Assembly: GCA_049582805.1 (NCBI GenBank)
Contig: JBAUUR010000012.1
Span: 244 to 64,243 of the forward strand
Length of the DNA stretch: 64,000 bases
Reading direction: 5' to 3'
DNA from: Gallionellaceae bacterium
Lineage (GTDB): Bacteria > Pseudomonadota > Gammaproteobacteria > Burkholderiales > Gallionellaceae
A model generated the notes under the pieces. That model saw only the letters and a program-made list of their open reading frames with translations. It had not been told where the DNA came from and did no database searches. Position 1 is the first letter of the stretch; every line of letters begins with the position of its first letter. A program made the translations under genes and the position numbers. Positions 12,488 to 56,028 of this stretch are shown one piece after another.

Positions 12488-12489
12488 GG

Positions 12490-13054: not shown

Positions 13055-13058
13055 CGAG

Positions 13059-13598
13059 ATGACGGAACAGACCGCAAACCTGGAAGCGCTGATGCGCCAG
13101 TCGCTGGACGGTGACCAGCGTGCCTACGCCGAACTGCTGCGCGAGACCGCGCGCATGCTGCGGCCGTTCCTGTCAAAACGCTTGAGTTTCGACAGCGAGG
13201 TCGAGGACTTGTTGCAGGAAATATTGATTTCCATCCACAAGGCGCGCCACACCTACGACGGCCAGCGACCCTACAAGCCGTGGGCCTATGCCATCGCCAA
13301 GTTCCGCCTGCATGATTACCTGCGCATGCACTATGCCGACCAGTTGCGCCATGCGGTGGATATTTCCGAACTGGAAAATAACTTGCACGAGGATGTAACC
13401 GAATCCCCCATCAGCTACGAATCCATCAGCGGGGAAGTCCACAAACTCCCCGGGAAGCAGGCTGCCATCCTGCAACTGATGCATCGGGATGGCTACACCG
13501 CGAAAGAGGCGGCGGAAAGACTGGGCATGACCGAGTCCGCAGTGAAGGTCGCGGCGCATCGCGCCTACAAGGTATTGAGACAGAAACTGGAACGCTAA
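13059..13598 (+). CDS. ECF-type RNA polymerase sigma-70 factor (SigF-like)
   Basis: Region 2 (DLLQEILISIHKARHTYDGQRPYKPWAYAIAKFRLHDYLR) and region 4 (LPGKQAAILQLMHRDGYTAKEAAERLGMTESAVKVAAHRAYKVLR). 1-nt TAATG overlap with the next gene. Confidence 0.88.
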   Translation: MTEQTANLEALMRQSLDGDQRAYAELLRETARMLRPFLSKRLSFDSEVEDLLQEILISIHKARHTYDGQRPYKPWAYAIAKFRLHDYLRMHYADQLRHAVDISELENNLHEDVTESPISYESISGEVHKLPGKQAAILQLMHRDGYTAKEAAERLGMTESAVKVAAHRAYKVLRQKLER

Positions 13599-14233
13599 TG
13601 GCAGATATCGAACAACTGGTAGCAGAGCTGGCGCATGACGTAGCAGCGGTGCAACCCGCGCCGCATCCTTACGTGTTGAGCCTGAAATGGATAGGCGCCG
13701 CCGCGGTTTACCTGGCGGTCTCGCTGGCTCTTTCCGGCCTGCGCCCGGATCTGGCGCAGGCGTTGCAACAGCCGTGGTATATCGCCGAGGTCGTCGCGCT
13801 GCTGCTGATCTTTATCGCGACGTCGTTCAGCGCCGCGTTATTGGCGTTCCCCGACCTGCACCAGGAGCGCGCACTGGCATTTGCGCCGGCTGTGATGTTC
13901 GCGGTGTTTCTGCTGGTGCTGCTGCTCGCCTGGCATGCGGACAGTCCACCCGCGCCGCTGCCCGAGCACAGCTTCCAGTGCACGATCAGCATCATTCTGG
14001 TTTCGTTGTTGCCGATGGCATGGACGTTCCACGCCATGCGCAAGTTTGCCAGCACGCATTACCATCTGGCGGGTGCCATTGCCCTGCTTTCCGCGTTCAG
14101 CGTTGGCGCGCTTTGGCTGCGGCTGCACGAGGTCAATGATTCCATCGTGCACGTGGTCGAGTGGCACTACCTGCCGATGCTGGCCTGCGGTCTGGTCGGT
14201 CTGGGGCTGGGCAGGCTGCTGCTGAAGTGGTGA
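13598..14233 (+). CDS. nrsF: NrsF-family (DUF1109) membrane anti-sigma factor
   Basis: Six predicted TM helices. N-terminus IEQLVAELAHDVAAVQP is typical of DUF1109. Translationally coupled to the ECF sigma gene. Confidence 0.7.
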   Translation: MADIEQLVAELAHDVAAVQPAPHPYVLSLKWIGAAAVYLAVSLALSGLRPDLAQALQQPWYIAEVVALLLIFIATSFSAALLAFPDLHQERALAFAPAVMFAVFLLVLLLAWHADSPPAPLPEHSFQCTISIILVSLLPMAWTFHAMRKFASTHYHLAGAIALLSAFSVGALWLRLHEVNDSIVHVVEWHYLPMLACGLVGLGLGRLLLKW

Positions 14234-38725: not shown

Positions 38726-38812
38726 GCCCAGATGGCGGAATTGGTAGACGCACCAGGTTCAGGTCCTGGCGGTGGCAACACTGTGGAGGTTCGAGTCCTC
38801 TTCTGGGCACCA
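38726..38812 (+). tRNA. tRNA-Leu (anticodon CAG), class II with long variable arm, CCA encoded
   Basis: GCCCAGA acceptor pairs with TCTGGGC. Anticodon arm CCAGG-TTCAGGT-CCTGG. T-loop GGTTCGAGTCC. Ends ACCA. Confidence 0.9.
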
Positions 38813-39306: not shown

Positions 39307-39636
39307 TCACTTTTACCTAATGCTTGACTTTTGGGGGAAGTGCCCCCTACCGCGCTAGCTGTTTAGTCCTTTGCTCCTGAGCGGAAGGTCAGAAGGCGTC
39401 TACAAAGTCTGGGGGAAGTCCATGGTCATAGATTGAATGAGGTTCGGACTTGGAACGACAAGCTACAATAGCCACGGCCATGTTAACTCATTGGTATAAT
39501 TGCTTTGGCTTTTTGTTGTTACTTATTCAAGGTACAGATTAGTGATAGTAGCTATTGTCATGTCGAGTAGAAATTTTTCGTTCTTTTTGACACACTGCTG
39601 CCGCGGTGCAATCAGGGAAGCCAAGGGGGAATCCGC

Positions 39637-40119
39637 TTGATATTTAATCCGTTCCGTCACAGTAACAGCACACCGCACTTGGAGAAGCTGCATACGCTGT
39701 CACTCTTCGTTAGTCTTTCTCCTTCGGAGCTTGCCATCGTCGATGGCTTGCTGCACGAGCGCCACTACATCAAGGACGAAGTGATCTTCGACCAGGGCGA
39801 GGACGGCAAAGCTCTTTACATCGTGGTCGACGGCGAAGTTCTGATCTGCCGCCAGGGTGAGCAGGAAAGCGAGCGCATCGTGAAACTGGGAACAGGTACC
39901 TTTTTCGGCGAACTCGCCCTGCTTGACGATTCACCCCGCTCGGCACAGGCTCGCGCCGCCACAAACTGCGACCTGATCGTGTTCTTCCGCGACGACTTTT
40001 TAAGCTTGCTCGACACCCACTCGCGCATCGGCTCGAAGATAGAGCGGCAATTCGCCCGCCACCTTGGAGCGCGCTTGCGCGAACTGTCTCTAAAAGCTGG
40101 CGTCCACCAGCACTTGTGA
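39637..40119 (+). CDS. Stand-alone cyclic-nucleotide-binding (CAP effector) domain protein
   Basis: IFDQGEDGKALYIVVDGEV...FFGELALLDDSPRSAQARA. No HTH follows. TTG start. Confidence 0.75.
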   Translation: MIFNPFRHSNSTPHLEKLHTLSLFVSLSPSELAIVDGLLHERHYIKDEVIFDQGEDGKALYIVVDGEVLICRQGEQESERIVKLGTGTFFGELALLDDSPRSAQARAATNCDLIVFFRDDFLSLLDTHSRIGSKIERQFARHLGARLRELSLKAGVHQHL

Positions 40120-41237
40120 ACATGGACCAGCGCAACAAATCGGGTCCCGTCGTATGGACAGCAATTATCGCTACCACCTGTTTGCTGCTTCTCGTCTCTC
40201 AGAAACTGCTTTGGCTGATGGTGCCTTTCCTGCTGGCGCTGATCCTTTATTACATCCTCTATCCGGCCACGCAAAGCTTCATCAACCGGGGAATGTCGCG
40301 CGATGAAGCCGCCGTCTGGACTATTGTCCTCTTCCTCATGGGGCTGGTGGTCGGGTTGTCCTTCATGGTGCCATGGATCACGATCCATATCGTCGATATA
40401 CAGGCATCGTTCGAGTTCTATCTGGATGGCGGCCTGCTGTTGCTTAATCGATCATTGCAGGCACTCGAAGCAAGTTGGCCAGCTTTCGCGAAAGTGCACT
40501 TGGCTGATACGGTGACGCTGAAACTCCAGGCTTGGGAGAACAGTATCGTCGAGCATGCTGAGCCGTTGGTGATGAGTATCGCCGCCTGGACATCCTCGTT
40601 GCTGCTGACGCCCTTTCTTGCCTTCTATTTCCTAAAGGATGGCCAGCGCTTCAAGCGCTTCCTTGCCCATGCGGTGCCGAATGCTTTTTTTGAGAGAACG
40701 CTCAACTTGTTGCACGAGGTTGACCAAACACTGCACGCCTACTTCACGGGGCTCATGAAACTCGCCGTACTTGATACGGTGACGCTCGCGGCGGGGCTCT
40801 GGATTGTCGGATTCCCCAACGCGCTGGCGCTGGGCTCCATCTGCGCGGTACTGGCGATGTTACCGTATGTCGGCACAATTCTCGGCGGTCTCGCGGTCAT
40901 CCTCGTCGCCGCGACGAATTTTCCCGATACGCCAACAATGGCCTATTGGGCAGCTTTGCTGTTCATCATTGCGCGCCTGCTCGACGATTTCGTCTACATG
41001 CCGCTAACAATTGGTAAGAGCCTGCATATGTCCCCGCTCGTGGCGGTGCTGATGATCTTTGTCGGCGGCGCCGTGGCAGGTGTCTCCGGCCTCATGCTGG
41101 CACTGCCGCTTCTCGGAGTAGTAATGGTGGTAGGCGAAACTATCAGCAAGGTGGTGACCGACCCGCGCCTGATGGCCCGGCACCGGCACGCCAAGGCGCT
41201 GCGGCGCAAGCTAGCGAGCGCCGATCTGATATCGTAA
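40116..41237 (+). CDS. AI-2E family transporter (PerM/YhhT-like)
   Basis: About 8 TM helices with a typical AI-2E C-terminal half (LAMLPYVGTILGG...). The start overlaps the stop of the cNMP-binding gene. Confidence 0.75.
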   Translation: MNMDQRNKSGPVVWTAIIATTCLLLLVSQKLLWLMVPFLLALILYYILYPATQSFINRGMSRDEAAVWTIVLFLMGLVVGLSFMVPWITIHIVDIQASFEFYLDGGLLLLNRSLQALEASWPAFAKVHLADTVTLKLQAWENSIVEHAEPLVMSIAAWTSSLLLTPFLAFYFLKDGQRFKRFLAHAVPNAFFERTLNLLHEVDQTLHAYFTGLMKLAVLDTVTLAAGLWIVGFPNALALGSICAVLAMLPYVGTILGGLAVILVAATNFPDTPTMAYWAALLFIIARLLDDFVYMPLTIGKSLHMSPLVAVLMIFVGGAVAGVSGLMLALPLLGVVMVVGETISKVVTDPRLMARHRHAKALRRKLASADLIS

Positions 41238-41259
41238 TATATTTTTGCTCAGGCCCGTG

Positions 41260-41365
41260 ATGCGCCCCGAAAAGTGGCCGCTGATCGAGTGGCCAGACGG
41301 TGAGGCTGAGCCGATAAAATACTCCCTCACTACAGCCCCAAGCGAGACCAATCTGGTAGAACCAG
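41260..41365 (+). mobile_element. Short remnant of a DDE transposase (IS701/IS4-like block)
   Basis: Translation EKWPLIEWPDGEAEPIKYSLTTAPSETNLVE resembles the ...LIEWPxGExEPxKYWLSxLP... block I recall from IS701-type transposases. Only about 35 aa is present. Confidence 0.35.
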
Positions 41366-41383
41366 GCAACGATCCTCATCAGT

Positions 41384-41986
41384 TCATCTCAATGAAATCA
41401 GATCTTCGAAAAAGTTGGCATATATCTTCTTCAATCCAGCTTCGCAAGCCAGAACATACGCATGCTGCGTATTGTCATTTACCACCACCTCCGCGCTATA
41501 ACTACGCTCCAGTATCATTTCAAATGGTTTCATTCTTTGCAGCGCAAAATGCAAAGAAACTACCGCGCGAGCATTGCCGCCATCGGTGATTTTCTCCAGA
41601 CGCAATATCTTGGCATTTAACAAATAGCCGATGTCACTTCCCATTGAGATATCTGTCACATGTGGGGCGATAGACATTGCTTCAAAGCTGGCGCGCATAT
41701 GCTCTTGCAACAGTACCGCCGGAGGCTCAATCCAGTATTGATAGTGGTATTGCTGTAACTCGCGTGGCTGCTTTACAGTTGTATACAACATGGCACGCTC
41801 GGCATATGAGCCATCGGCACGCAATGGTGCAACATACAGCGTCTCGTTCAATATCGTCCGAGCAGAGGCACCCCCCGGAGCAGCCTCCAAACGGTAATAT
41901 TTGTCGGGTGAAACTGGCGGCATGGACTGACATCCCGCCAACGCAAAAGTCATAATACAAATCGAGAATCTGATCAAAGTGCTCAT
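41384..41986 (-). CDS. ABC-transport auxiliary lipoprotein (DUF330/PqiC-like)
   Basis: Lipobox FALAGC followed by YYRLE, typical of PqiC/YmbA-like proteins. ATGA overlap with the MCE gene. Confidence 0.7.
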   Translation of the reverse strand: MSTLIRFSICIMTFALAGCQSMPPVSPDKYYRLEAAPGGASARTILNETLYVAPLRADGSYAERAMLYTTVKQPRELQQYHYQYWIEPPAVLLQEHMRASFEAMSIAPHVTDISMGSDIGYLLNAKILRLEKITDGGNARAVVSLHFALQRMKPFEMILERSYSAEVVVNDNTQHAYVLACEAGLKKIYANFFEDLISLR

Positions 41987-42930
41987 TTATTCGCTTCCGA
42001 AGGATCAGCGGGCGCAGGACTACTGAAAATCGAGGATGGATTTTCGTGTAACTGCCGTGACAACTCATTCAAGTTGCGGCTGGCTCGTTCAAGGTTGGAC
42101 AAAATGGTTTGTGTCTGCTGCACGGAATAACGAATCTCCGTCTCCGTCTGTTTAAAGTCGTCCACTGCCTGATTAACTCGCTCCGTGGTTTGATCGCCAT
42201 TTTTCAAGATGCTGTTCATGTGTTGGCGATTTTCAGCATTCAGCAATTGTCCCAGATTATCGGCAGCGGTATTCAAACGAGCCAGTGTGCCATCTGCCTG
42301 ATCCAGCATCATTCCGCCTTTTTGTTCCAGCATACCGCCCAAACTATCCACGCGATGATTTAAATTCTGCAAGACAGGGCGTACATCGTCCCGTGTGATG
42401 CTGTGCAGATCGCTAACCAATCCGCCCAAACTATCCACGCGATGATTTAAATTCTGCAAGACAGGGCGCACTTCGTCCCGTGTGATGCTGCGCAGATCAC
42501 TAACCAGCCCGCCCAAAGCAGCGATCAAGGGTGGATTATCCAGCGCTTGAATATCTTGACCCGGCTTCAGAAAATCCTGGCTCTTGCCCTGTTGTACATC
42601 AATCAGCTGGCTGGACAGCAAACCGGACGAACTGATTGAAGCCAAACTGTCCGCTGGCACCTTCCAGTCATGTTTAAAAAGCAGTTGCACACGATAATAA
42701 ATGCGGCCATCGCGGCTGACGGGCTCGATACTTTGTACATGCCCCACCTGATAGCCATCGAAAGTCACCGGTGAACCGTCGGCGATTCCTGCGACATTGT
42801 GAAAGGTCGAGTAATACACATCATGTTTTTCAGTATGGCCATTCAAACGCGCTAATGCGTAGATCAGCAAGGCCATCGCTATCAGGACAAATGCGCCGAC
42901 CAATCTGTAATTGATGTTGTTGCGCTTCAT
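41983..42930 (-). CDS. MlaD/MCE-domain protein with an extended helical C-terminus
   Basis: N-terminal TM (LVGAFVLIAMALLIYAL), then an MCE beta-barrel (GIADGSPVTFDGYQVGHVQSIEP). The C-terminal helical region contains a 29-aa tandem duplication. Confidence 0.8.
   Translation of the reverse strand: MKRNNINYRLVGAFVLIAMALLIYALARLNGHTEKHDVYYSTFHNVAGIADGSPVTFDGYQVGHVQSIEPVSRDGRIYYRVQLLFKHDWKVPADSLASISSSGLLSSQLIDVQQGKSQDFLKPGQDIQALDNPPLIAALGGLVSDLRSITRDEVRPVLQNLNHRVDSLGGLVSDLHSITRDDVRPVLQNLNHRVDSLGGMLEQKGGMMLDQADGTLARLNTAADNLGQLLNAENRQHMNSILKNGDQTTERVNQAVDDFKQTETEIRYSVQQTQTILSNLERASRNLNELSRQLHENPSSIFSSPAPADPSEANK
42335..42508. repeat. Tandem duplication, 2 x 87 bp, inside the MCE gene
   Basis: Copies at 42335-42421 and 42422-42508 differ at about 6 positions. 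A third copy starts (ccgcccaaa) at 42509. Encodes LVSDL(R/H)SITRD(E/D)VRPVLQNLNHRVDSLGG twice. Confidence 0.9.
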
Positions 42931-42939
42931 GGTTCCATC

Positions 42940-43743
42940 CTATACAAGCTCACGAGTCAGACGTTGCAAATATGCATCCGCATCCACTTCCTCCCGACGA
43001 GGCTGACGGTTCAGAAAGCTGACGATGCGCGGATGATCGGAGCCGCGTATTTCGTCAACCGTACCAATCATCAAAATATGCCCCTGATCCAGCACGGTGA
43101 TGCGATCAGCTATCTTAAACGCACTTTCGAGTTCATGGGTCACCACCACGATGCTCATGCCCATCGCTTCCTGCAAATTCAAAATCAGCTCATCCAATTC
43201 GACTGATGCCACCGGATCAAGCCCCGCCGAAGGCTCATCGAAAAACAACAGGCGCGGATCAAGCGCGATGGCACGCGCCAGCGCGACACGCTTCAACATC
43301 CCGCCAGACAGTTCGCTCGGCATTAAATCTTCGAAGCCATTCAGGTTCACCACTTCAAGCTTCATACGCGCCATGATCTGAATGGTGTTGTCGTCGAGTT
43401 CAGTGTGTTCGCGCAGCGGCATCGCAACATTTTCGCCAACGCTCATTGAGTTGAACAACGCACCCCCCTGAAAGGAAACACCCATCTGCCTGCGCAAGGC
43501 AAACATTTCTTGCGCTGACATGCGCGTGATGTCATGCCCGAGCAACTTAATTGACCCTGACGAAGGTTGATTCAATCCAATCAAATGCCGCAGCAGCGTG
43601 CTCTTGCCGGAACCACTTCCACCCATGATGACCATGATCTCACCCTGCGTCACTGTCATATCGATACCGTGCAATATCTCCCGATCCCCATAGTGCGAGA
43701 CCAGCTTATTCACTTCGATGGCAGCAATCTCGGGAGGTGACAT
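42940..43743 (-). CDS. MlaF-like ABC transporter ATP-binding protein
   Basis: Walker A GGSGSGKST, signature LSGGMLKRVALARA, Walker B LLFFDEP. Confidence 0.88.
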   Translation of the reverse strand: MSPPEIAAIEVNKLVSHYGDREILHGIDMTVTQGEIMVIMGGSGSGKSTLLRHLIGLNQPSSGSIKLLGHDITRMSAQEMFALRRQMGVSFQGGALFNSMSVGENVAMPLREHTELDDNTIQIMARMKLEVVNLNGFEDLMPSELSGGMLKRVALARAIALDPRLLFFDEPSAGLDPVASVELDELILNLQEAMGMSIVVVTHELESAFKIADRITVLDQGHILMIGTVDEIRGSDHPRIVSFLNRQPRREEVDADAYLQRLTRELV

Positions 43744-43744
43744 A

Positions 43745-44587
43745 TCAGCGACTCAGAAATCCGGTAATTAACATATCAGCAAGAATGATAGAGACAATGC
43801 ACAACACTACTGAACGCGTCGTCGCGCGGCCCACTCCTTCCGCACCACTCTCGACTTTAAATCCATTCACCGCACCGATGATCGCTATCAGCATGGCGAA
43901 GGCAATACTCTTATAAATACCGCCCAGGACGTCGTCAGGGGTCAACACCGCAAAACTGCGGTCGAAAAAAACTTCAAGCGGCATACCCAGTGCCGCCATG
44001 CAATACAAGGCGCCCCCCAGCATCGCGACCAGATCGGCCACCACCGTCAGGCATGGCATAGTGATCATCAGCGCAATCAACAAAGGCGCAACCAGATACC
44101 GCACTGGATTAACACCGATGACGCGCAGCGCGTCGATCTCCTGCGATACCATCATGGTACCAATACGTGCTGCCACAGCAGAACCAGAACGACCTGCGAC
44201 AAAGATGCCAGTGATCAACGGCGCGAATTCGCGACTCACAGAATAAGCGATTCCCATCACCACCTGGGAGTTGGCGCCAAATTGTTTGAGTGTGTGGATG
44301 CCCTGCATCGCCAGCATTGTGCCGGTGGCGAAACAGGCAACCGCGACAATCGGAATGGCACGAACACCGACTTCGACGGCCTCCTTGAACACGGCGGCGA
44401 TACGCACTGGTTGATTGCGCCAGTGTCCCAGTATCAACCAATACAGGCTTTCAAACAGCAGCGCGCTGGCATAGCCGACTTCGTCGCTCATCCTGGCGGT
44501 CTTTCTGCCCACCCATTCGACCGCAACCAGCGGAATTTTTAGTGCGCTAAGCGTCAAGATCTTCGTACTCCGCCACGCTGGCGACAA
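43745..44587 (-). CDS. MlaE-like ABC transporter permease
   Basis: Typical MlaE helices (GVRAIPIVAVACFATGTMLAMQG...REFAPLITGIFVAGRSGSA). The start is uncertain: TTG 44587 overlaps the STAS gene by 41 nt, and a later TTG near 44557 is possible. Confidence 0.82.
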   Translation of the reverse strand: MSPAWRSTKILTLSALKIPLVAVEWVGRKTARMSDEVGYASALLFESLYWLILGHWRNQPVRIAAVFKEAVEVGVRAIPIVAVACFATGTMLAMQGIHTLKQFGANSQVVMGIAYSVSREFAPLITGIFVAGRSGSAVAARIGTMMVSQEIDALRVIGVNPVRYLVAPLLIALMITMPCLTVVADLVAMLGGALYCMAALGMPLEVFFDRSFAVLTPDDVLGGIYKSIAFAMLIAIIGAVNGFKVESGAEGVGRATTRSVVLCIVSIILADMLITGFLSR

Positions 44588-44879
44588 TGCGGAACACTTT
44601 ATCCAATCTGGCCAGTTTAATTACTCCAAGCACACTACCCGTTGGCGCGGCCAGAACGAAATCCTGTCCCAGTTTCCTGGCATTTTGCAGCCCTTCCACC
44701 AAGGATGCTACCCCGGAGCTATCCATGTATTTCACAGCAGAAAGATCAACGATGATTGGCGCTCTGGCTTTGACCATGTCTAAAATCACCTCCCGAACGG
44801 TGGGCGAAGAGTGCATGTCAATTTCCTCCGATATAGAGAGAATTTTGATTTTGCCGCGAGTCGTGATGGTGTATTTCAT
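44547..44879 (-). CDS. STAS-domain protein (anti-sigma-factor antagonist / MlaB-like)
   Basis: IIVDLSAVKYMDSSGVASLVEGL, with the phosphorylatable Ser of the DSSG motif (Ser54). 110 aa. Confidence 0.85.
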   Translation of the reverse strand: MKYTITTRGKIKILSISEEIDMHSSPTVREVILDMVKARAPIIVDLSAVKYMDSSGVASLVEGLQNARKLGQDFVLAAPTGSVLGVIKLARLDKVFRIVASVAEYEDLDA

Positions 44880-46606
44880 GTGGATTCCAATGGATTCTTT
44901 TTGTCCAGACGAATGCTCATATAGAGCAGATTTCCATAAGCTTCCGGAGGGGAACAGAAAACCATCTCATCCATCAATTCCCGGATGAAATGAACCCCTA
45001 ACCCACCAGGACGAACATCTTCCAATGACCGCGAGATGATCTTCGCCTTGTCGACCGGTGGTGCATGGTCGAGCAACTTGAAGATTATTGCGTTCCTGTT
45101 TTTGTTATGCGCTACCCGTAACTCGTAGTCTCCCTGATTACTGCCCTGATAGCCATGTTGGATTACATTCATGCAAGCTTCATTGAGTGCGACCACGATC
45201 GAATCTGCCAATCCGTCAGCGGCACCAGCGGACGTAACCATATCACGAATTTGGCTGCGCATTTCTTTCAAAGTGGCCGGGTCGGATGGGAACTTGAGTA
45301 CCCCGATGAGATTACTTTCAGCCGGTTCGATCGCCAGCAAAGTGATGTCGTCACGCAAGGGTTGGCCGCTGGATGACAGTCGTTCGACGATAGCGCGCAA
45401 ACGTTGAGCCAGTGGATATTTGGCGAACTCGTCCAGCATCCCCTTCAGTCCTTCTTCACCCAGCTCTTGCTCACCGCCGGCTTCAGTTACCCCATCGCTA
45501 TACAAATACAGGCAGCCTCCCTCCAGATACACAGCCTCATCCTGAAACTCAATGCCGGCCAGAATTCCGAGCGGTGGCATATCTGCATCAAAGCTTATAA
45601 ATTCACCGCTGGTTTTGCGCAGTATAGGTGGAAGGTGTCCAGCATTAGCGAACAGTACAATTTGAGTGGCGGGGTCGTAGATGCCCAAGACCATGCTAAC
45701 AAACATGCCATGCGAGCTGGTAGCGTAAACCTCATCGTTGATTGTAGCTAACAATCTGGCGGGCTGCGGCATACTCTTACACAGACATTGAAACAAGCTG
45801 ATGGTCTTTGACATCAGCATCGAAGCGCGTATACCTTTGCCGGATACGTCCCCCAAACTGAACGCGATACGTCCATCGGCCAGCATCAAATGCGAATAGA
45901 AATCCCCCGAGATTTCCTGCGCGGGTAGATTGATACCGAAAATCGGAAAGCATGGCTCCGGATCATTGGGTAACAAACTTCGCTGAATCTGACCGGCAAG
46001 ACGAATCTCTTGGCGCAAAGCCTCTTGTGCAACGCGCTCCTCGGCCATGCGCGCATGATGAATGGCAAAAGCCGACAAAGCTGCCAGCGATGAGAGTAAC
46101 CGCCCGTCTTTCTCCGTAAACAAAGGATTGATACCGTTTTTGTTGCAAACCTCAATTGCGCCGAATGGTTTACCTTTCATCGCCAGAGGCGCGCACAGGA
46201 TCGAGCGTGTCACAAAACCTGTCTTTTCATCCATCTCTCCATCGAAATCCTTGTCGTTTTGTACATCGAACACCGTCTCCAGCGAATTATTCATCACCGC
46301 ACGACTCAATACCCCCTTACCAAACGGCACTGCCAAGCCGATGACACCCATCGGCCCCGCGCAAAAACGGCAAATAAGATGCGTCCCTTCAGGATTCAGC
46401 AGAAATACCGAGGCAGTTTCGGCATGCAAATGCTCCCTCACCCGCAAGGTTGTATTGCGCAAAGTCTCATCCAACTCAATCGACTCAGTGAACTCCACCC
46501 CCAACGAGGCGACGAACTCAATCTCCAACATGTCATTACTGTTAGAATCTACTTTGCGCCTTTCAATCATGTTGACCTTGCCCCTATATTCGGTATCTCT
46601 TGACAC
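44876..46606 (-). CDS. GAF + PP2C (SpoIIE/RsbU-type) phosphatase + RsbW/SpoIIAB-like HATPase kinase fusion (HsbR-like, with GAF replacing the receiver)
   Basis: GAF: LRVREHLHAETASVFLL...ILCAPLAMKGKPFGAIEV. PP2C: ISGDFYS, LGDVSGKGIRASMLMS, LYSDGVTEA. Kinase: LNEACMNVIQHGY...RPGGLGVHFIRELMDE. ATGA overlap with the STAS gene. The start is either GTG 46606 or ATG 46570. Confidence 0.8.
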   Translation of the reverse strand: MSRDTEYRGKVNMIERRKVDSNSNDMLEIEFVASLGVEFTESIELDETLRNTTLRVREHLHAETASVFLLNPEGTHLICRFCAGPMGVIGLAVPFGKGVLSRAVMNNSLETVFDVQNDKDFDGEMDEKTGFVTRSILCAPLAMKGKPFGAIEVCNKNGINPLFTEKDGRLLSSLAALSAFAIHHARMAEERVAQEALRQEIRLAGQIQRSLLPNDPEPCFPIFGINLPAQEISGDFYSHLMLADGRIAFSLGDVSGKGIRASMLMSKTISLFQCLCKSMPQPARLLATINDEVYATSSHGMFVSMVLGIYDPATQIVLFANAGHLPPILRKTSGEFISFDADMPPLGILAGIEFQDEAVYLEGGCLYLYSDGVTEAGGEQELGEEGLKGMLDEFAKYPLAQRLRAIVERLSSSGQPLRDDITLLAIEPAESNLIGVLKFPSDPATLKEMRSQIRDMVTSAGAADGLADSIVVALNEACMNVIQHGYQGSNQGDYELRVAHNKNRNAIIFKLLDHAPPVDKAKIISRSLEDVRPGGLGVHFIRELMDEMVFCSPPEAYGNLLYMSIRLDKKNPLEST

Positions 46607-46769: not shown

Positions 46770-46942
46770 AAGGGGGAGGGGATATTTCGGCCTACGGATT
46801 TTTCGGGGCTAGAACAGTTTTTTCATTTTGTAGCGTGCAACTTTCGTTTCCGAGTTGGTCCTGATTCCCATGCCGGTAAAAACATTATATACAACATATT
46901 CAATGTCTTAAAAAGATAAATTATAATGTCACTTTAAGTTCT

Positions 46943-48367
46943 TCATCTGCCGTTAAATGACTCGCCGCTCTTCTGCCAATCCCCGCCCAGGGCAGTGATG
47001 AGAACCGCGTTGGCAAGCAGCCTCCGTCCGGCGATGTTGAGGCTGTTTTGTTGCGCAGCGAGTGCCGTCGCCTGCGCCGTGACGACATTCAGGTAGCTGA
47101 CGGTGCCGGCCTGGTACTGGTTTTCCGTCAGTGCCAAGGCTTGGGAGGCGGACTTCTCAGCGGCTTGCTGCACTGAGGCCTCGTCTGCAAGATGGTGCAG
47201 CGCGGCGAGGTTGTCTTCGACTTCCTGGAATGCGGCAAGTACGGTCTGACGGTAACTGGCCACGCTATTGTCATAGACTGCGATTGCGGCCCGCTTCGTC
47301 GCCGAGCGCGCGCCGGCATCGAACAGAGTCAGCGCAATAGACGGGCCGATCGACCAGAAGCTATTAGGCGATGTCAGCAGTTGCGAAAGGCTGGAACTTT
47401 GGTAACCACGAGTGCCGTTCAAGGTCAGCGCGGGAAAAAATGCTGCCTGCGCCACGCCGATCTGGGCATTGGCCTCCGCCATATGCCGCTCGGCTGCAGC
47501 AATATCGGGTCGCCGTTCCAGCAACGCGGAAGGCAGTGCGGACGGAACCTGCGGAAGCGAGGGGAGGACGTTCGTCGGCTTGATCTGGAAGTCCGCCGGC
47601 GCCTTGCCGATCAGCATGGCGATGGCGTGTTCAAACTGCGCCCGCTGCACGCGCAGATCGATCGCTTGGGCCCGGGTCGTCTCCAGTTGTGTTTCGGCCT
47701 CTGCCACGTCGAGGCTACTTTCGACGCCAGCCTCATTGAGGTTCTTCGTGATTTGCAGTGAGCGCTCGTAGGCAGCGGTGGTCTGTTCGAGCAGACGCTG
47801 CTGGACGTCGTTGGTACGAAGCTGGAAATAGGTCTGCACCAGCGTCGCCTGCGCGGACAGCAGCGCATTCCCCAGATCGGCGCTGCTGGCCTGGGCCGAT
47901 GCCTTGCTGGCTTCGACATTGCGTCCGATTAGTCCCCATATATCCGGCTCCCAGCTGGCGCTCAAGGTAGGGCGTACAACGTTACTGATCGGGGCGCCAT
48001 GCTGCACCACGGTCGCATTGCCTGGAGAAGTTCCCCGCGCGCGCGTCCCCGTTAAGCCTGCAGTCACGGTTGGGAAATAGCTTGCCTGCGCCACGTCCAG
48101 TAGTGCCTGTGCCTGCCGGTAAGACGCAGCGGCGGCGAGAACATTCTGGTTCGATATCTTGACCTGCGGCACCAACGCATTCAAATCCGCGTCACCATAG
48201 ATTTCCCACCAGTTCCCGCGCGGGGCCCCGTCCTTCGGCTCGGCTGGCTTCCAGTTCCCGGCCTCCCTGTAGGCTGCGGGTGTCCAAACATCGGGCTTGC
48301 GGTAATCCGGACCGACCATGCAGCCGGTCAGCAGCAACAGGGCAGCCGAAATTGCGTAGGTCTTCAT
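46943..48367 (-). CDS. RND efflux outer-membrane lipoprotein (NodT/OprM family)
   Basis: Lipobox LLLTGCMVGPDYRKP and two OEP repeats. Start at ATG 48367. Confidence 0.9.
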   Translation of the reverse strand: MKTYAISAALLLLTGCMVGPDYRKPDVWTPAAYREAGNWKPAEPKDGAPRGNWWEIYGDADLNALVPQVKISNQNVLAAAASYRQAQALLDVAQASYFPTVTAGLTGTRARGTSPGNATVVQHGAPISNVVRPTLSASWEPDIWGLIGRNVEASKASAQASSADLGNALLSAQATLVQTYFQLRTNDVQQRLLEQTTAAYERSLQITKNLNEAGVESSLDVAEAETQLETTRAQAIDLRVQRAQFEHAIAMLIGKAPADFQIKPTNVLPSLPQVPSALPSALLERRPDIAAAERHMAEANAQIGVAQAAFFPALTLNGTRGYQSSSLSQLLTSPNSFWSIGPSIALTLFDAGARSATKRAAIAVYDNSVASYRQTVLAAFQEVEDNLAALHHLADEASVQQAAEKSASQALALTENQYQAGTVSYLNVVTAQATALAAQQNSLNIAGRRLLANAVLITALGGDWQKSGESFNGR

Positions 48368-48384
48368 CACAAGTATCCTTTCAC

Positions 48385-51300
48385 TCATGGCGTAGCGGGT
48401 AACGCGGAACGGTTCCGCGGCCAAATCTTCAGGCACCACAAGCGGAAACGGTCGAGGTAAAGATAGACCACCGGCGTGGTGTACAGCGTCAGCAGCTGGC
48501 TCAGAATCAGCCCGCCGACGATGGAAATGCCCAGCGGCCGCCGGAACTCGGCGCCATCAGAGAAACCGATCGCCAGCGGTATCGCACCGAACAGCGCGGC
48601 CATGGTAGTCATCATGATCGGGCGGAAACGCAGCATGCAGGCGCGATGGATCGCATCGCGCGGCGACAGCCCTTCCTCACGTTCCGAGAAGAGCGCGAAG
48701 TCGATCATCATGATGGCATTCTTCTTGACGATGCCGATCAGCAGGATAACGCCAATCAGGGCAATGATCGTAAACTCGGTACCAAAAGCCATCAAGGCGA
48801 GAATCGCGCCGACGCCGGCCGAAGGCAGCGTGGACAATATCGTCAACGGGTGGATCAGGCTTTCGTAGAGGATGCCGAGAACCAGATAGACCGCGACCAG
48901 CGCGGCCAGGATCAACAGCGGCTGGTTGTTGAGGGAATCCTGGAAGGCCTTGGCCGTACCCTGAAAGCTGCCGTGCACCGAGGTCGGCACGCCAAGCCTG
49001 AGCATGGTATCGTCGATGATCTGAGTCGCATCGGAAAGCGAAACGCCGACCGGCAGGTTGAATGAAATTGTCGACGCGACGAACTGTCCCTGATGATTGA
49101 CCGCCAGCGGCGTAAAAGTCTGTTCGTAGTGGGCAAACGAGGCCAGCGGCACCTGTACGCCGCCGGGTGCGATGACAAACACATCCTTCAGGGTTTCCGG
49201 GCTCTGCCAGTATTGCGGCGCTGCTTCCATCACCACGTGATACTGGTTAAGCGGTTCGTAGATCGTCGACACCTGTCGTTGCCCGAACAGATCATTGAGT
49301 GTGGCATCGATCAGTTCAGGTGTAACTCCGAGCCGCGCTGCAGCGTCTCTGTCAATCACGAGGCTGGTTTGCAGACCCTTGTCCTGAGAGTCGGTATTGA
49401 CATCGGTAAGCTGCGGCAATTTGCCCAGGGCCTCGCGTACGAGCGGCTCCCAGGTGCGCAGTTCATCTATGGTATCGGCCTGCAGCGTGTATTGGTATTG
49501 CGCGTTGCTGGCGCGCCCGCCCATGCGGATATCCTGCTGCGGTTGCAGGAACAGGCTGGCGCCGGGTTCGCGTGCGAGTTGCGGACGCAGGCGCGCGATC
49601 ACCTGATCAGCTGACAAATGCCGCTCGGCGATGGGTTTGAGCGAAATGAACATGAAAGCGGAATTGCGCTGGCCGCCCCCGGTAAAGGCGACGACATTGT
49701 CCACCGCCGGATCGGCATGCACAATATCCACATAGTTGGTCAGCTTTTCGCGCATCGCCTGGAAGGAAATGCTCTGGTCCGCCTGGATATTCCCGGTCAG
49801 GCGCCCCGTATCCTGTTGCGGAAAGAACCCTTTCGGCACGATGATATAAAGATAGATATTGAAGCCTATTGTCGCAGCCAGTATCAGCAACATGATGCGT
49901 CCATGCGCCAGCGCCCAATCGAGGGTGACACGATAGCGGTTCAGTGTAGCCTCGAAGATCCGTTCACTGGCATGGTAAAAGCGCCCGTGCTTTTGCTCGC
50001 CAAGCGGCTTCAGCAGGCGTGCGCACATCATTGGCGTCATCGTCAGCGACATGACCAGCGAAACAAGGATAGCGGCGGAGAGGGTAACGGCGAACTCGCG
50101 GAACAGGCGGCCGACGATGCCGCCCATCAGCAGGATCGGAATGAACACCGCGATCAGCGACAGGCTCATCGACAGCACGGTGAAACTGACCTCGCGCGCG
50201 CCCTTCAACGCGGCCTCAAGCGGGGTGCTGCCGTTCTCGATATGGCGCGTCACGTTCTCCAGCACCACCACCGCGTCGTCCACGACGAAGCCGGTGGCGA
50301 TGGTCAGCGCCATCAGCGACAAGGTGTTCAGGCTGAAACCGGCCAGGTACATCACGCCGAAGGTGCCGATCAGCGACACTGGCACGACGACGCTGGGAAT
50401 CAGCGCCGCCCTGGCGTTGCGCAGGAACAGGAACACCACCATCACCACCAGGGCGACTGAAATCGCCAACGTGCGCTCGACTTCGTGCAGCGATGCGCGG
50501 ATGGTCGGCGTGCGATCCATGACGACATTGAGGTCGATGGCGCCGGGGATGGAGGCGCGCAGTTGCGGCAGCACGGCGCGCACGCGGTCGACGGTGTCGA
50601 TTATGTTGGCGCCCGGTTGGCGGTTGATGATCAGCATGACCGCGGGCTTGCTGTTGAACAATCCGGCATTGCGTACGTCCTGTTCCGAATCCAGAACGCT
50701 GGCAACATCGCCGATGCGCACGGCCGCGCCGTTGTTGTACGCGACGATCACCGGGATGTAGTCAGCCGCAGTCTTGCCCTGGTCGTTGGCGAGTATCTGC
50801 CAATCGTGGCTGCCGTCCTCGATCGCACCCTTGGGGCGGTTGGCGTTCGTCGCGACTATTGTTGTTCGCACGGTCTCGGGACTGATTCCCAACTGGCTCA
50901 ATGCCGGCGGATTGAGCTCAACGCGAACCGCAGGCAGCGAAGATCCGCCGACCGTAACCTGTCCGATGCCGTCAAGCTGGGAGATTTTCTGCGCCAGGAT
51001 GGTCGATGCGGCATCGTACATCTGCCCGCGCGACATCGATGCCGAGGTCAGCGACAGAATCATGATCGGTGCATCCGCCGGATTTACCTTGCGGTAGGTC
51101 GGGTTGCTTGGCAGGCCGGTCGGCAGCAGGGTGCGCGCTGCGTTGATGGCAGCCTGCACGTCGCGCGCGGCCCCATCGATGTCGCGGGAAAGCTCGAACT
51201 GCAAGGTGATGCGCGTATTGCCAAGCGAGCTGCTGGAGGTGAGTTCGGTGACGCCGGCAATCACACCGAGCGAACGTTCGAGCGGCGTCGCCACCGTGGA

Positions 51301-51480
51301 AGCCATGGTTTCCGGGCTGGCGCCCGGCAGCGAAGCCTGCACGGAAATGGTCGGAAAATCGATCTGCGGCAGCGGCGCCACCGGCAACAGCATGAATGAC
51401 ACCGCGCCAGCCAGGGCCACGCCCAGCGTCAACAAAGTTGTCGCGACCGGGCGGTTGATGAAAATGGCTGGAATGTTCAT
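48385..51480 (-). CDS. mdtC: RND multidrug efflux permease MdtC-like
   Basis: [17 protein letters not shown]..., 12-TM AcrB/MdtC architecture. The ATG at 51480 overlaps the mdtB stop (ATGA). Confidence 0.9.
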
Positions 51481-54400
51481 GTCTTGCGCCACTGCGCCAG
51501 GCGGTCGAAGGCGAGATAGATGACCGGTGTGGTGAACAACGTCAGCACCTGGCTCACCATCAGGCCGCCGACCATGGTGATGCCGAGCGGATGGCGCAGC
51601 TCGGAACCGACGCCGGTGCCCAGCATCAGCGGCAGCGCGGCCAGCAAAGCCGACATCGTGGTCATCAGGATAGGCCGGAAGCGCAGCAGGCATGCCTCAT
51701 GGATCGCATCGCGCGGAGACTTGCCTTGCTTGCGCTCGGCATCCAGCGCAAAGTCGATCATCATGATCGCATTCTTCTTGACGATGCCGATCAGCAGGAT
51801 GATGCCGATAATGGCAATGATGCCAAGATCGTTGCCCGACACCAGCAACGCCAGCAGCGCGCCAACCGCGGCCGAGGGCAGTGTCGACAGAATGGTCACC
51901 GGATGGATGTAGCTCTCGTACAGCACACCGAGCACGATGTACATGGTAACGACGGCAGCGAGGATCAGCAGCAGCGTATTGTTGAGCGAGGACTGGAATG
52001 CCAGCGCGGCGCCCTGGAAGCTGGTCTCAACGCTGATCGGCATGCCCAGTTCCCTGGTCGCATTGCGGATGGCGGAAACTGCCTGGCCGAGCGATGCGCC
52101 GGGCGCAAGGTTGAAGGAAACCGTCGAGGCCGGAAACTGGCCGATATGATTGATGGCAAGCTGCGTTGTCTTCTCGGTCACGTGCGCTATCGATGAAAGC
52201 GGAACCTGGTTGCCGCTGGGTGAAACGACATAAATATTTTCCAGCGCCGCCAGACCCTGCCTGAAGCCCGGCTTGACCTCGAGCACGACGCGGTAGAGAT
52301 TGGACTGGGTATAGATGGTCGAAATCAGTCGCTGGCCGAAGGCGTTGTAGAGCGCATTGTCGATTGCAGCCGGGGTGATGCCGAGCCGCCCGGCGCTGGC
52401 GCGGTCAATGTCAACATAGGCCTGCAAGCCTTGATCCTGCGTGTCGCTGGCAACGTCATTCAATTCCGCAACCTTGCGCAGGCGTGCGACCAGTTTCGGA
52501 CCCCACAGGGCAAGTTCGTCGGGATCGGCGTCCTGCAAACTGAACTGGTATTGGGTGCGGCTGACGCGATCCTCGATGGTCAGGTCCTGCACCGGCTGCA
52601 TGTAGGTGGTGATGCCGCCCAGCTTGTCGAGCTTCGTCTGCAGGCGACGAATGACACCGCTGGCATCGGCATCGCGCTCGGCTTTCGGTTTCAGGTTGAT
52701 CAGCATGCGGCCGCTATTCAGCGTGACGTTGGCGCCGTCGACACCGATGAACGACGACAGGCTATCCACCGCCGGATCGGCCAGCACCGTATCGGCCACG
52801 ACCTGTTGGCGTTCGGCCATTGCGGCAAACGAAATCGACTGCGGCGCCTCGGTGATGGCCTGGATGACGCCGGTGTCCTGCACCGGAAAGAAGCCCTTGG
52901 GAATGAAGACATAGAGCAGCACGGTCAGCACCAATGTGCCGATGGCGACCAGCAAGGTTGCGCCCTGCCGATCGAGCACCCAATTGAGCCAGATGCCGTA
53001 ACGCGCGATCACCCTGTCAATAAAGGCGCCGCTGGCGCGGTAGAAGCGTCCCTGCTGCTCCGGCGGCGTATGGTGCAGCAACCGCGCGCACATCATCGGC
53101 GTCAGCGTCAGCGACACCACGGCCGAGATCAGGATCGACACGGCAAGGGTGACGGCAAACTCGCGGAACAGCCGGCCCACTACGTCGCCCATGAACAGCA
53201 GCGGAATCAGCACGGCGATCAGCGAAAAAGTCAGCGAGATGATGGTGAAGCCGATCTGCTCGGCGCCTTTTAGTGCCGCCTGCATCGGAGAATCGCCGGC
53301 CTCGACGTAGCGCGAGATATTCTCGATCATGACAATGGCGTCGTCTACAACGAAGCCGGTGGCGATGGTCAGCGCCATCAGCGTCAGGTTGTTGATCGAG
53401 AAATCCGCCAGGTACATGACACCAAACGTGCCAACCAGCGACAGCGGCACCGCTACGGCTGGAATCAGCGTCGCCGGCACATTGCGCAGGAACAGGAAGA
53501 TCACCATCACCACCAGCGCCACCGACAGCAGCAATTCGAACTGGACATCGTGCACCGAAGCGCGGATGGTGGTGGTGCGGTCGGTCAGCAGCCTGACCTC
53601 CACCGTGCCTGGCAGCGCTGCCTGCAATTGCGGCAGCACCTGCTTGATGCGGTCGACGGTCTCGATGACATTGGCACCCGGTTGGCGCTGGATATTGAGG
53701 ATGATGGCTGGCGCCTTGTTGGCCCAGGCCGCCAGCCGCACATTCTCGGCGCCGTCGATGACGTCAGCGATGTCTCGCAAACGTATCGGCGCGCCGTTCT
53801 TCCATGCGATGACCAGATCAAGATACTCGGCCGCGGATTTGAGCTGGTCGTTGGCATCTATTGTGGAAGCGCGCATTGGGCCGTCGAAGCTGCCCTTGGC
53901 CATGTTGACATTGTCATTGCCGATGGCGGTGCGCACATCATCAAGATTTAACCCGTTGGCAGCGAGTGCCTTCGGGTTGACCTGGATACGCACGGCGGGC
54001 CGCTGGCCGCCGCCAATGCTGACCAGGCCGACGCCGGGCAACTGCGACAGTTTCTGCGCCAGCCGCGTATCCACCAAGTCCTCAATCTGGGGCAACGGCA
54101 GCGTCGCCGAAGTGATCGCCAGCGTGATGATGGGTGCATCTGCCGGATTGACCTTGCTGTAGATCGGCGGCATCGGCAGGTCGGTCGGCAGGAAGGAGCC
54201 GGATGCGTTGATCGCCGCCTGCACTTCCTGCTCGGCAACGTCGAGGCTCAATGTCAGGCTGAATTGCAGCGTGATGACCGAGGCGCCGCCGGAACTGGCC
54301 GAGGACATCTGGTTCAGGCCCGGCATCTGGCCAAATTGGCGTTCCAGCGGAGCCGTGACCGATGAGGTCATCACATCGGGGCTGGCCCCGGGGTAAAGCG

Positions 54401-54545
54401 TGGTGACCTGGATCGTCGGGTAATCAACCTCGGGCAGCGCCGAGATCGGGAGGATGCGATAGCCCACCAGACCGGCCAGCAGGATGGCGACCATCAGCAG
54501 CGAAGTCGCTACCGGCCGCAGGATGAAAGGACGCGACGGGTTCAC
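51477..54545 (-). CDS. mdtB: RND multidrug efflux permease MdtB-like
   Basis: [25 protein letters not shown]..., a paralogue of the downstream gene, consistent with a heteromeric MdtBC arrangement. Confidence 0.9.
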
Positions 54546-55906
54546 TGCGAATTCTGGTTGTCGGCGCCGCCCTCGTGCTGGCGGCGCATTTCGCGCATGC
54601 GCTGCTTGCGTTCATCCTCGGGAAGTTTTTTCATTTCCTCGCCGAATTCGCCGCGGTCAATGCGCGCGTTGATTTCCGCCCACTTTTTCTTTCGCTCCTC
54701 GGCCGAGGCTCCACCCGGGCTTCCAGCGGCGGCGCGCGGCATTTTGCCTGCGCCCGGAACTTTGCCTGCGCCCGGCGTTGTCACCTCTACCTTGGCGTGT
54801 TCGCGCAACTTGTCTGCGCCATCGGTCACCACCTGCTCGCCAGCCGCGAGCCCTTTGTTGATCGCGACGGTTTCACCGGAAACCGGCCCGAGCGTAACCG
54901 GGCGGATGGCCACAGTCCGGTCCTGGCCGATGACATAGACGAACGTGCCCTGGGTGCCGCGCTGGATCGCCGCGACCGGAGCCAGGATGGCATTGTGCAG
55001 GGTTTCCACACGCAGGCGGGCATTCACGAACTGGTTGGAAAACAGCTTGTCATCGGTGTTGGCGAATTCGGCCTTGAGATTGACCGTACCGGTGCTGACA
55101 TTGATCTGGTTGTCCATGACCAGCAATTTCCCGCTCGCCAGCTTGGTCTTGCCGTCGCGATCGAGCGCGTAGACGGCCAGCGTCTTGCCGGAATGGAAAT
55201 GCGCAGACACCGTCCCGATACTGTCCGCCGGAATGGCGAAAATGACATAGATAGGCCGGGTCTGGGTAATCACCACCAGGCCGGTCGTGTCGGCGGCATG
55301 GATCATGTTGCCGACGTCAAGTTGGCGCAGCCCCGGTATTCCTGTAACGGGCGCGGTAATGTGCGTGAAATCGAGGTTCAGCTGGGCGCTATCCACCTGG
55401 GCGCGATCCATCTTGACCACGCCTTCATCCTGGCGCACCAGCAACGCCTGGTCATCGACCTGCTGCTTGGCGATCGAATCCTTCGCCAGCAGTCCCTGGT
55501 AGCGCTCAAGGTCAAGCTTGGCCTCATCCAGCAGCGCCTGGTCGCGGATCAGCTGTCCTTTAGCCTGATCGAGCAGCACCTGATAGGGACGCGGATCAAT
55601 TTCCGCGAGCAGCCCGCCTTGTTTGATAAGCTGGCCTTCGCGAAAAGGAACTCGCACCAGCAGGCCGTCTACGCGCGCCTTGACCGTTGCCGTATTGAAC
55701 GCGGTAACGGTACCCAACCCATCGATGAACACATCAATGTCGCCGCTCTTTGCCAAGGCTGCCTGTACCGGAAACGGCTTCCCGTCCCCAGCGGCGCCGC
55801 GCTTCCCTCCCGGCGTGCCGGCCTGATCCGCAGGCTTGTGGTAAAACCAAAAGGCTAAGATACAGATAAGCAACAATCCGGCGAACCAGAGGATTTTCTT
55901 TTTCAT
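54542..55906 (-). CDS. mdtA: RND efflux periplasmic adaptor MdtA-like with a charged C-terminal extension
   Basis: Membrane anchor [17 protein letters not shown] plus lipoyl/beta-barrel MFP domains. An alternative TTG start lies at 55930. Confidence 0.88.
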
Positions 55907-56028
55907 GCAATCAGTATTTTTGTTGTTCAATCAGCGCAGGATAACCGCCGCAAAACCGGATTTATGCATTTTCCCAACATTAGGGCGCCTCTAAAATTCA
56001 GAGTGCGCCCAAATGCAAAGCGAGGAAA

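Follow-up and report, generated by a model that had tools for sequence, protein, structure and literature searches.

A stretch of 64,000 nucleotides (nt) from the genome of a Gallionellaceae bacterium (GenBank assembly GCA_049582805.1, contig JBAUUR010000012.1, positions 244 to 64,243 of the forward strand; hereafter called the window) carries six adjacent minus-strand genes that probably form a single operon encoding a trans-envelope MCE lipid transporter of the Mpc type, the activity of which would be set by a phosphorylation switch encoded by the same operon. In order, the genes encode a sensor protein consisting of a GAF domain, a PP2C phosphatase and an RsbW-like kinase, a STAS protein, an MlaE-family permease, an MlaF-family ATPase, an MCE protein, and a PqiC-like lipoprotein. 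The model of a phosphorylation-switched MCE transporter, which we consider fairly likely to be correct, is built on sequence comparisons, structural models, and analogy with known systems. We also propose, more tentatively and with an assurance that falls a little short of even, that partner switching acts here on a transporter and not on transcription, the STAS protein shuttling between the kinase domain and MlaF and lipid transport being gated by a cytoplasmic small molecule, and that such a system is widespread among the Alpha-, Beta-, and Gammaproteobacteria.

An initial annotation of this region, made from the letters and a list of open reading frames (ORFs), had described six tightly packed genes, and the six densely arranged minus-strand ORFs at 41384-46606 bear this out, as do Pfam and NCBIfam for the domain content given there. 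The junctions are also as described: an ATGA overlap joins the sensor gene to the STAS gene and a second one joins the MCE gene to the lipoprotein gene, the spacing between the MlaE and MlaF genes is 1 nt and that between the MlaF and MCE genes 9 nt, and the TTG start of the MlaE gene overlaps the end of the STAS gene, including its stop codon, by 11 nt. Two of the gene extents required revision. The longest sensor ORF does indeed reach GTG 46606 and comprises 576 amino acids (aa), but its start is most likely ATG 46570, giving a product of 564 aa, because the homologues are 559-564 aa long. The MlaE gene most likely starts at TTG 44557, which yields a permease of 270 aa, i.e., the called product P0121.

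The linkage of these genes extends far beyond this strain. In a scan of one genome per species, 565 loci were found to encode a relative of the sensor, the best 80 of which were fetched and compared by tblastn with the six window proteins, together with ORF extraction. Nine of these 80 loci end at contig edges and match the expected order in the part that they cover, which leaves 71 evaluable loci. All six genes are present in the same order and on the same strand in 65 of them, with median gaps of 3-13 nt; the STAS gene lies directly 5' of the permease gene, often overlapping it, and the lipoprotein gene comes last. The loci are spread over the Alpha-, Beta-, and Gammaproteobacteria, with a sensor identity of just 40-45%, and cultured carriers are found among strains of Paramagnetospirillum, Magnetospirillum, and Dongia. 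In one further evaluable locus (L049) no lipoprotein gene was detected, and four others represent a variant with a classical Mla transporter, which is discussed below. The co-occurrence across genomes that the initial annotation had proposed to look for is thus found in 65 out of 71 loci from three proteobacterial classes and, therefore, the linkage is not specific for this strain.

The sensor (44876..46570, minus strand) was assigned on the basis of Pfam, its homologues, a structural model (AF2), and Foldseek. Pfam recognizes a SpoIIE-type phosphatase (141 bits), an HATPase_c_2 domain (76 bits), and a GAF_2 domain (42 bits), and the AF2 model (pLDDT 82, pTM 0.55) shows a GAF domain, a linking helix of 47 residues, the PP2C domain, and the kinase. 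The top Foldseek match of the protein is the RsbU+RsbW fusion Rv1364c (3ke6; E 8.5e-19). The PP2C domain (PF07228; 45326..45877, minus strand; residues 244-427) is matched over its full length, i.e., positions 2-190 of the 192 of the profile, with its 141 bits far above the cut-off of 25, and its fold resembles those of RssB, SiaA, and SpoIIE according to Foldseek. In an alignment of 19 diverse homologues, its residues D235, D253, D371, D419, and D420 are invariant. The RsbW/SpoIIAB-type kinase domain (44915..45292, minus strand; residues 439-564) covers positions 1-126 of the 127 of the HATPase_c_2 profile and aligns with Bacillus subtilis RsbW (6m36_A) across the N-box and the G2 box; the N-box residues E476, N480, and H484, the G1 Asp (D513), and the G2 motif GGLG (534-537) are invariant in the same 19 homologues. 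Its G1 box, DHAPPVD, had been considered degenerate in the initial annotation. However, the family consensus is DxAPPVD, as opposed to DEGDSFD in the aligned segment of B. subtilis RsbW, and the sequences indicate that this is a conserved family variant that retains the Asp, not decay.

The input domain of the sensor is the GAF domain (46058..46477, minus strand; residues 44-183 of the 576-aa ORF, from Pfam), and Pfam finds no REC domain in the protein. A long helix (residues 165-211) runs from the GAF domain into the phosphatase. Both by sequence and by fold, the nearest solved relatives of the GAF domain are cyclic-nucleotide GAF domains: the cAMP-bound GAF domain of Leptospira Lcd1 (5w10) is retrieved with an E of 2e-11 and superimposes with a TMt of 0.80-0.84, and the motif N155/K156...F163...D167 is conserved among the sensor homologues. 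The resemblance to Lcd1 may be taken as a hint, not a demonstration, of a GAF ligand, possibly cAMP or cGMP.

The STAS protein (44547..44879, minus strand; 110 aa) is assigned by TIGR00377, the model for SpoIIAA/RsbV-type anti-sigma-factor antagonists, with 74.1 bits against a cut-off of 53.45. Ser54 (codon AGC, 44718-44720), the first Ser of a DSSG motif, occupies the position in the alignment at which SpoIIAA has Ser in the structure 1th8 and Ala in 1tid, and the motif Y[IM]DSSG is found in 78 out of 79 loci. This alignment with SpoIIAA supports the earlier designation of Ser54 as a phosphorylatable serine. In the AF2 model of the protein (pLDDT 92), helix alpha2 begins at Ser54, and the top folds retrieved with this model are RsbV, TM1442, and SpoIIAA. 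Of these, RsbV as present in the RsbV-RsbW complex superimposes best, with a TMt of 0.92; E. coli MlaB gives a significant but weaker match (TMt 0.70). The gene is the sole STAS gene of the operon and encodes a single-domain protein together with MlaE and MlaF, and the cognate RsbW-type kinase and PP2C phosphatase are domains of the gene directly 5' of it.

Evidence that this STAS protein belongs to the transporter comes from relatives of the permease (43745..44557, minus strand; Pfam MlaE, 232 bits). When the window permease was used as the query of an exhaustive HMMER search, a few orthologous clusters ranked first. Beyond these clusters, 94 of the best 150 MlaE representatives have a length of at least 340 aa and are N-terminally extended, and each of the eight long representatives that were scanned proved to be a STAS domain plus MlaE. 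Three operons of this fused type were looked up, and these have the order STAS-MlaE fusion, MlaF, MCE protein (316-338 aa), ABC_trans_aux lipoprotein, with one contig ending before the position of the lipoprotein gene. No kinase or phosphatase gene occurs in these three operons and, therefore, the kinase/phosphatase appears solely where the STAS protein is free. In the sister group, the counterpart of the window STAS gene, which overlaps the permease gene, is built into the permease itself, and the fusions thus provide Rosetta-stone evidence that the STAS protein is a transporter subunit. The fused STAS domains are variable at the acceptor position (DSAG, DTAG, DSFG, GT...). Within the sensor-linked clade itself, one protein that looked like a STAS-MlaE fusion (P0245; L088, 355-1329) was rejected as most likely a frameshift artefact because its contig derives from an assembly with 2x coverage and many broken genes.

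A transporter of the fused type has been described for Brucella abortus: its MlaE permease, MpcE, carries a STAS domain at the N-terminus, MpcF is a homologue of MlaF, MpcA is a PqiC-like lipoprotein, MpcD is an MCE protein of 331 aa with a predicted periplasm-spanning needle, and MpcE, MpcF, MpcD, and MpcA co-purify (PMC12436622). The window operon shares with Mpc the MlaE-type permease, the MlaF-type ATPase, the MCE protein of ~330 aa with a long C-terminal region, and the PqiC-like lipoprotein, all in identical order, as well as a STAS module immediately N-terminal to, or 5' of, the permease and the lack of MlaC and MlaA. It differs from Mpc in that its STAS protein is separate, with a sensor gene 5' of it, whereas the STAS domain of Mpc is fused to MpcE and there is no kinase/phosphatase gene. 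In addition, the MlaF proteins of the fused type are 47-53% identical to the window MlaF and lack its DxDxYLxRL tail. The initial annotation was right in recognizing the MCE and ABC (ATP-binding cassette) parts of what it called an Mla/MCE-type transporter, but an Mpc-like assignment, i.e., Mla-Pqi chimeric (PMC12436622), fits better than Mla.

The MlaF protein (42940..43743, minus strand; 267 aa) has the LSGGM signature, its best NCBIfam match is the MlaF model NF008809, and its top matches in the PDB are the MlaF proteins of Acinetobacter baumannii, Pseudomonas aeruginosa, and E. coli. Its C-terminal extension (residues 246-267, about 42943-43008) contains the sequence DADAYLQRL. The MlaF orthologues linked to the module all share a C-terminal DxDxYLxRL(T/L)G, and the DxDxYLxRL tail aligns with Tyr261, Leu265, and Leu266 of E. 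coli MlaF. In the E. coli complex, the corresponding “handshake” helix of MlaF fits into the groove that lies between MlaB and the adjacent MlaF subunit (PMC7367683).

This MlaF clade stays with the module even where the remainder of the transporter has been exchanged. In the four gammaproteobacterial variant loci (L026, L047, L052, and L073) the sensor and STAS genes are followed by a classical Mla set, MlaE-MlaD-MlaA-MlaC. The order was read in detail in L026 (variant locus 7974-13728; MlaD of 148 aa), where the phospho-switch-type STAS gene is the sole STAS gene, and was recovered by tblastn in the other three. A convergent MlaF gene is present in three of the four loci, the contig of L047 stopping too early. 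The MlaE of L026 is 42% identical to that of E. coli vs 35% to that of the window, and its MlaD is 35% identical to E. coli MlaD vs 26% to the window MCE protein, whereas its MlaF is 67% identical to the window MlaF vs 42% to E. coli MlaF; over the variant loci, the identity to the window MlaF is 67-69%. One MlaF clade thus persists despite the swapped permease and MCE protein and, therefore, the sensor, the free STAS protein, and this MlaF clade travel together whatever the periplasmic machinery.

From these observations a mechanism can be proposed. The transporter would consist of an MlaE2-MlaF2 ABC core, a hexameric MCE needle, and the PqiC-like lipoprotein in the outer membrane, and the STAS protein would act as a detachable equivalent of MlaB, the binding of which to MlaF is gated by phosphorylation of Ser54 under the control of the GAF domain. 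In its unphosphorylated form, the STAS protein would dock on the helical subdomain of one MlaF and the handshake helix of the neighbouring MlaF, and would in this way stabilise the active ATPase dimer on MlaE. The RsbW-like domain would compete with MlaF for one helical face of the STAS protein and would phosphorylate Ser54 at the start of helix alpha2, upon which the phosphorylated STAS protein would leave MlaF and the transporter would be silenced. The PP2C domain would strip the phosphate from Ser54. How far the kinase or the phosphatase prevails would be set by the GAF domain, which would respond to a small ligand of the cytoplasm, possibly cAMP or cGMP, and act through the long connecting helix. 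By its position at the start of helix alpha2, Ser54 is the equivalent of Thr52 of MlaB, at the centre of the E. coli MlaFB interface, and the phosphomimetic substitution T52E in MlaB weakens the binding of MlaF in E. coli (PMC7367683). The proposal that an MlaB-equivalent STAS protein is under the control of a GAF-containing bifunctional enzyme had already been made in the initial annotation, and it is considerably strengthened by the synteny, the fusions, the MlaF clade with its tail, and the DSSG motif; the binding of the STAS protein to MlaF, the phosphorylation of Ser54, the sign of the regulation, and the ligand are what we infer.

Several points weigh against this mechanism. The STAS protein is nearer to the anti-sigma antagonists than to MlaB in its sequence as well as in its fold: a search of the PDB gives 54.7 bits for TM1442 vs 15 bits for E. 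coli MlaB (E 0.2; P. aeruginosa MlaB E 8e-4), and the NCBIfam model for MlaB (NF033618) is not passed, with 20.5 bits vs a cut-off of 90. The canonical glycines of the G1 box (Asp-x-Gly-x-Gly) are replaced throughout the sensor family, so that the kinase activity is putative, and the direction of the regulation and the nature of the ligand are guesses. Furthermore, the linkage was inspected in the closest 80 of the 565 loci, and one of the 71 evaluable loci (L056) contains the sensor/STAS module without the transporter. Therefore, the module is able to serve other outputs. At this locus (6773-11317) the sensor is split into one gene for the GAF-PP2C part (443 aa) and another for the kinase (138 aa), which are followed by the STAS gene and a gene for a CHASE2-adenylate/guanylate cyclase; this cyclase forms a second loose link to cyclic nucleotides.

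One alternative is that the output of the switch lies outside the operon. The module could be a conventional partner switch with a target encoded elsewhere, e.g., an anti-sigma factor or an enzyme such as a diguanylate cyclase, the transporter being co-transcribed as part of the same stress regulon. We consider this unlikely, even though the STAS protein passes the TIGR00377 model and resembles RsbV and SpoIIAA above MlaB, the L056 module occurs without a transporter, and partner-switching modules with outputs other than sigma factors are known (HsbA, SypA, and the HenR system of Anabaena). The names in public records agree with such an external output, as orthologues of the STAS protein are recorded as “anti-sigma B factor antagonist,” besides “STAS domain-containing protein,” and relatives of the sensor as “RsbU” or “SpoIIE family protein phosphatase.” However, no sigma factor, anti-sigma factor, or other partner gene recurs in or beside the 80 loci. 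The operon itself contains no sigma or anti-sigma gene, which leaves room for a distant target, and upon clustering of the flanks of the 80 loci no sigma, anti-sigma, or cyclase genes were found to recur. Moreover, the STAS gene constantly abuts the permease gene, often overlapping it, the nearest relatives of the permease hold their STAS domain covalently, and the MlaF clade with the partner-docking tail stays with the module despite the exchange of permease and MCE protein. If the STAS protein acts on the transporter, as we favour, the current annotation of the sensor and STAS genes is misleading.

A third possibility accepts the STAS protein as part of the transporter and denies it the switch: it would be a constitutive structural subunit, the role assumed for MlaB of E. 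coli, and the sensor would target MlaF, MlaE, or something else, or its kinase domain would serve as a non-catalytic binding module. The absence of the canonical glycines from the G1 box is in line with this, and E. coli MlaB functions without a known kinase (PMC7367683). However, the free STAS proteins strictly keep the DSSG motif where the fused STAS domains drift, a contrast that is difficult to reconcile with a purely structural role, and the N-box Glu/Asn, the G1 Asp, and the GGLG of the G2 box are invariant in the kinase. The genes of the sensor and the STAS protein share an ATGA overlap and the STAS model almost superimposes on RsbV of the RsbV-RsbW complex. A constitutive STAS subunit is, therefore, in our opinion quite improbable.

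The two halves of the proposed system are both familiar. E. coli MlaB is a separate STAS protein that keeps MlaF on the complex. Pseudomonas HsbR-HsbA and Vibrio fischeri SypE-SypA combine an RsbW-like kinase and a PP2C phosphatase in one polypeptide that acts on one STAS protein. In these systems the STAS protein, and not the kinase, is the output; the input is a REC domain fed by a phosphorelay, and the outputs of HsbA and SypA are FlgM or a diguanylate cyclase, or polysaccharide production. The sensor described here likewise fuses an RsbW-like kinase with a PP2C phosphatase and is paired with one STAS protein, but its input is a GAF domain instead of REC and it is linked to an ABC transporter. 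Rv1364c of Mycobacterium tuberculosis also has a PP2C domain followed by an RsbW-type kinase in one chain, a comparison made with the solved phosphatase/kinase fragment (3ke6). Rv1364c has another sensor domain, carries a STAS domain in the same chain, is tied to the control of a sigma factor, and has no transporter context. With the RsbU/RsbV/RsbW and SpoIIE/SpoIIAA/SpoIIAB switches of Bacillus the system shares the STAS fold, the DSSG motif, the N-box and G2 box of the kinase, and the aspartates of the PP2C domain; it differs from them in the fusion of kinase and phosphatase, in its G1 box (DxAPPVD vs DEGDSFD), and in the lack of a nearby sigma factor.

Among the lipid transporters, E. coli MlaFEDB (PMC7367683; PMC5016091) is similar in its MlaE/MlaF core with the LSGGM signature and its operon-encoded, single-domain STAS protein, in the C-terminal Tyr/Leu/Leu helix of MlaF, which aligns, and in the Ser/Thr at the start of STAS helix alpha2 (Thr52 in MlaB, Ser54 here). 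In contrast to the situation in the window, where there is a dedicated sensor gene, MlaB has no known kinase or phosphatase. The STAS protein of the window is SpoIIAA/RsbV-like, with only the above-mentioned 15 bits to MlaB, the MCE protein has 315 aa vs 183 aa in E. coli, and there is a PqiC-like lipoprotein, whereas MlaC and MlaA were not found in the 64-kb window.

What is new is the conserved union of an Mpc/Mla transporter with a bifunctional module like that of HsbR, SypE, and Rv1364c. The author of the initial annotation was not aware of a described example, and we found no published account of the arrangement of sensor, STAS protein, and MCE transporter in the full-text literature searched, the journal coverage of which is partial, or in a review on STAS proteins. 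To our knowledge, the regulation of MCE/Mla lipid transporters is unknown. Phosphoregulation of MlaB has been left as an open possibility, with no evidence for it and no enzyme (PMC7367683); the present operon family offers a candidate kinase, phosphatase, and sensor for this question of STAS phosphorylation. If the mechanism proposed here is true, the phosphoregulation hypothesised for MlaB would find its natural counterpart in it, partner switching would be extended from gene regulation to the direct control of an ABC ATPase, and the lipid homeostasis of the envelope would be tied to a cytoplasmic signal of the second-messenger type. Since cultured carriers exist, the question of phosphoregulation of the transporter is directly testable.

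The two remaining transporter genes are located at the 3' end of the operon. The MCE protein (41983..42930, minus strand; 315 aa) has a transmembrane segment at its N-terminus, followed by a single MCE domain (residues 38-115) and an extended C-terminal region. It matches Pfam MlaD with 56 bits and TIGR00996 with 100 bits, the latter being under the cut-off of that model. Its orthologues have a median length of 331 aa, and Brucella MpcD likewise has 331 aa. The part of the gene encoding the C-terminal region contains an 87-nt in-register tandem duplication (42335-42508; 93% identical; 29 aa), which would extend the predicted periplasmic needle. In the closest genome (L001), the MCE gene seems to contain this unit only once, since the alignment breaks there and the MCE match is ~15 aa shorter. 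The PqiC-like outer-membrane lipoprotein (41384..41986, minus strand; 200 aa) passes the Pfam model ABC_trans_aux (PqiC/YmbA-like) with 26.8 bits vs a cut-off of 26, and a lipobox, LAGC, can be read from the translation at residues 16-19.

The genomic setting of the operon was examined for signs of mobility. The G+C content is 0.50-0.53 at 41-47 kb vs 0.59-0.63 in the flanks, the low stretch extending over about 38-47 kb; the lower G+C content noted in the initial annotation is thus confirmed. The remnants of insertion sequences (IS) reported there to bracket the operon were not recovered, as no transposase and no IS-like inverted or direct repeats were found around it. Instead, the operon is flanked by a tRNA-Leu and an integrase fragment on one side and by an AT-rich intergenic region on the other. 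The tRNA-Leu(CAG) gene (38726-38812), the only hit of an Rfam scan of 38-48 kb, is located 2.6 kb past the 3' end of the operon, and a C-terminal fragment of a tyrosine recombinase (“HSFRHTLVRLG...YLGH...”; about 39.0-39.3 kb, minus strand) adjoins it. This fragment matches site-specific integrases by tblastn (E 2e-7) and, weakly, a PHROG integrase (E 0.08); it has no Pfam match, so its reading as an integrase rests on these two comparisons. A search for an att-like repeat of the 3' end of the tRNA-Leu gene found none. In L001, the sensor of which is 83% identical, collinearity with the window is confined to 39449-46578. The tRNA-Leu gene and the recombinase fragment at the edge of the low-G+C stretch suggest a decayed tRNA-associated island, and this lineage may have obtained the 38-47 kb block as an island. 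The earlier judgment that the operon is bracketed by IS remnants and probably mobile is not supported in the form given: no IS, no att repeat, and, in the plasmid collection, no relative of the sensor with more than 30% identity was found.

These features have to be considered for the linkage itself, as the partner-switching cassette and the MCE transporter could have been joined by a recent accident on a mobile island in this strain, a juxtaposition mediated by IS having been entertained in the initial annotation. The low G+C content at 38-47 kb, the tRNA-Leu and integrase fragment at 38.7-39.3 kb, and the limited collinearity with L001 would be in line with such an event. However, the gene order is shared by 65 distant loci set in lineage-specific housekeeping surroundings (e.g., genes for cytochrome oxidase subunits and polyhydroxyalkanoate (PHA) synthase), and this excludes recent juxtaposition as the source of the linkage; the lack of an IS, of an att repeat, and of a plasmid copy above 30% identity also speaks against it. 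Whether or not this copy was acquired horizontally, the operon as such is ancient. Acquisition of the whole block by this lineage is possible, and is uninformative on how the six genes became joined.

Upstream of the operon, a sigma-70-like promoter candidate (TTAAGA-16-TATAAT; 46884..46911, minus strand), a pattern match from a consensus scan with 10 out of 12 positions matching, is present in the 336-nt AT-rich intergenic region 5' of the sensor gene. Promoter-like sites are not enriched in this region, the frequency of promoter- and terminator-like sites within the operon is not above that in shuffled sequences, and a 38-aa ORF fragment 5' of the operon has no Pfam match. At the other end, two plus-strand genes with a 4-nt overlap (39637-41237) are convergent with the operon and encode a cyclic nucleotide monophosphate (cNMP)-binding protein of 160 aa and a transporter of the AI-2E family of 373 aa. 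Both were excluded as parts of the system, as they neighbour the operon only in L001; cNMP-like genes occur in 3 out of 80 loci. The first part of the window (1-4000) also has a low G+C content, 0.42-0.48 vs 0.58-0.62 over most of the window. Finally, 5' of the operon and on the same strand (46943-55930), a resistance-nodulation-division (RND) efflux cluster that is not shared with L001 encodes, in an MdtABC-like layout, a membrane-fusion protein, two AcrB-family pumps (1022 and about 1030-1100 aa), and an outer-membrane factor.

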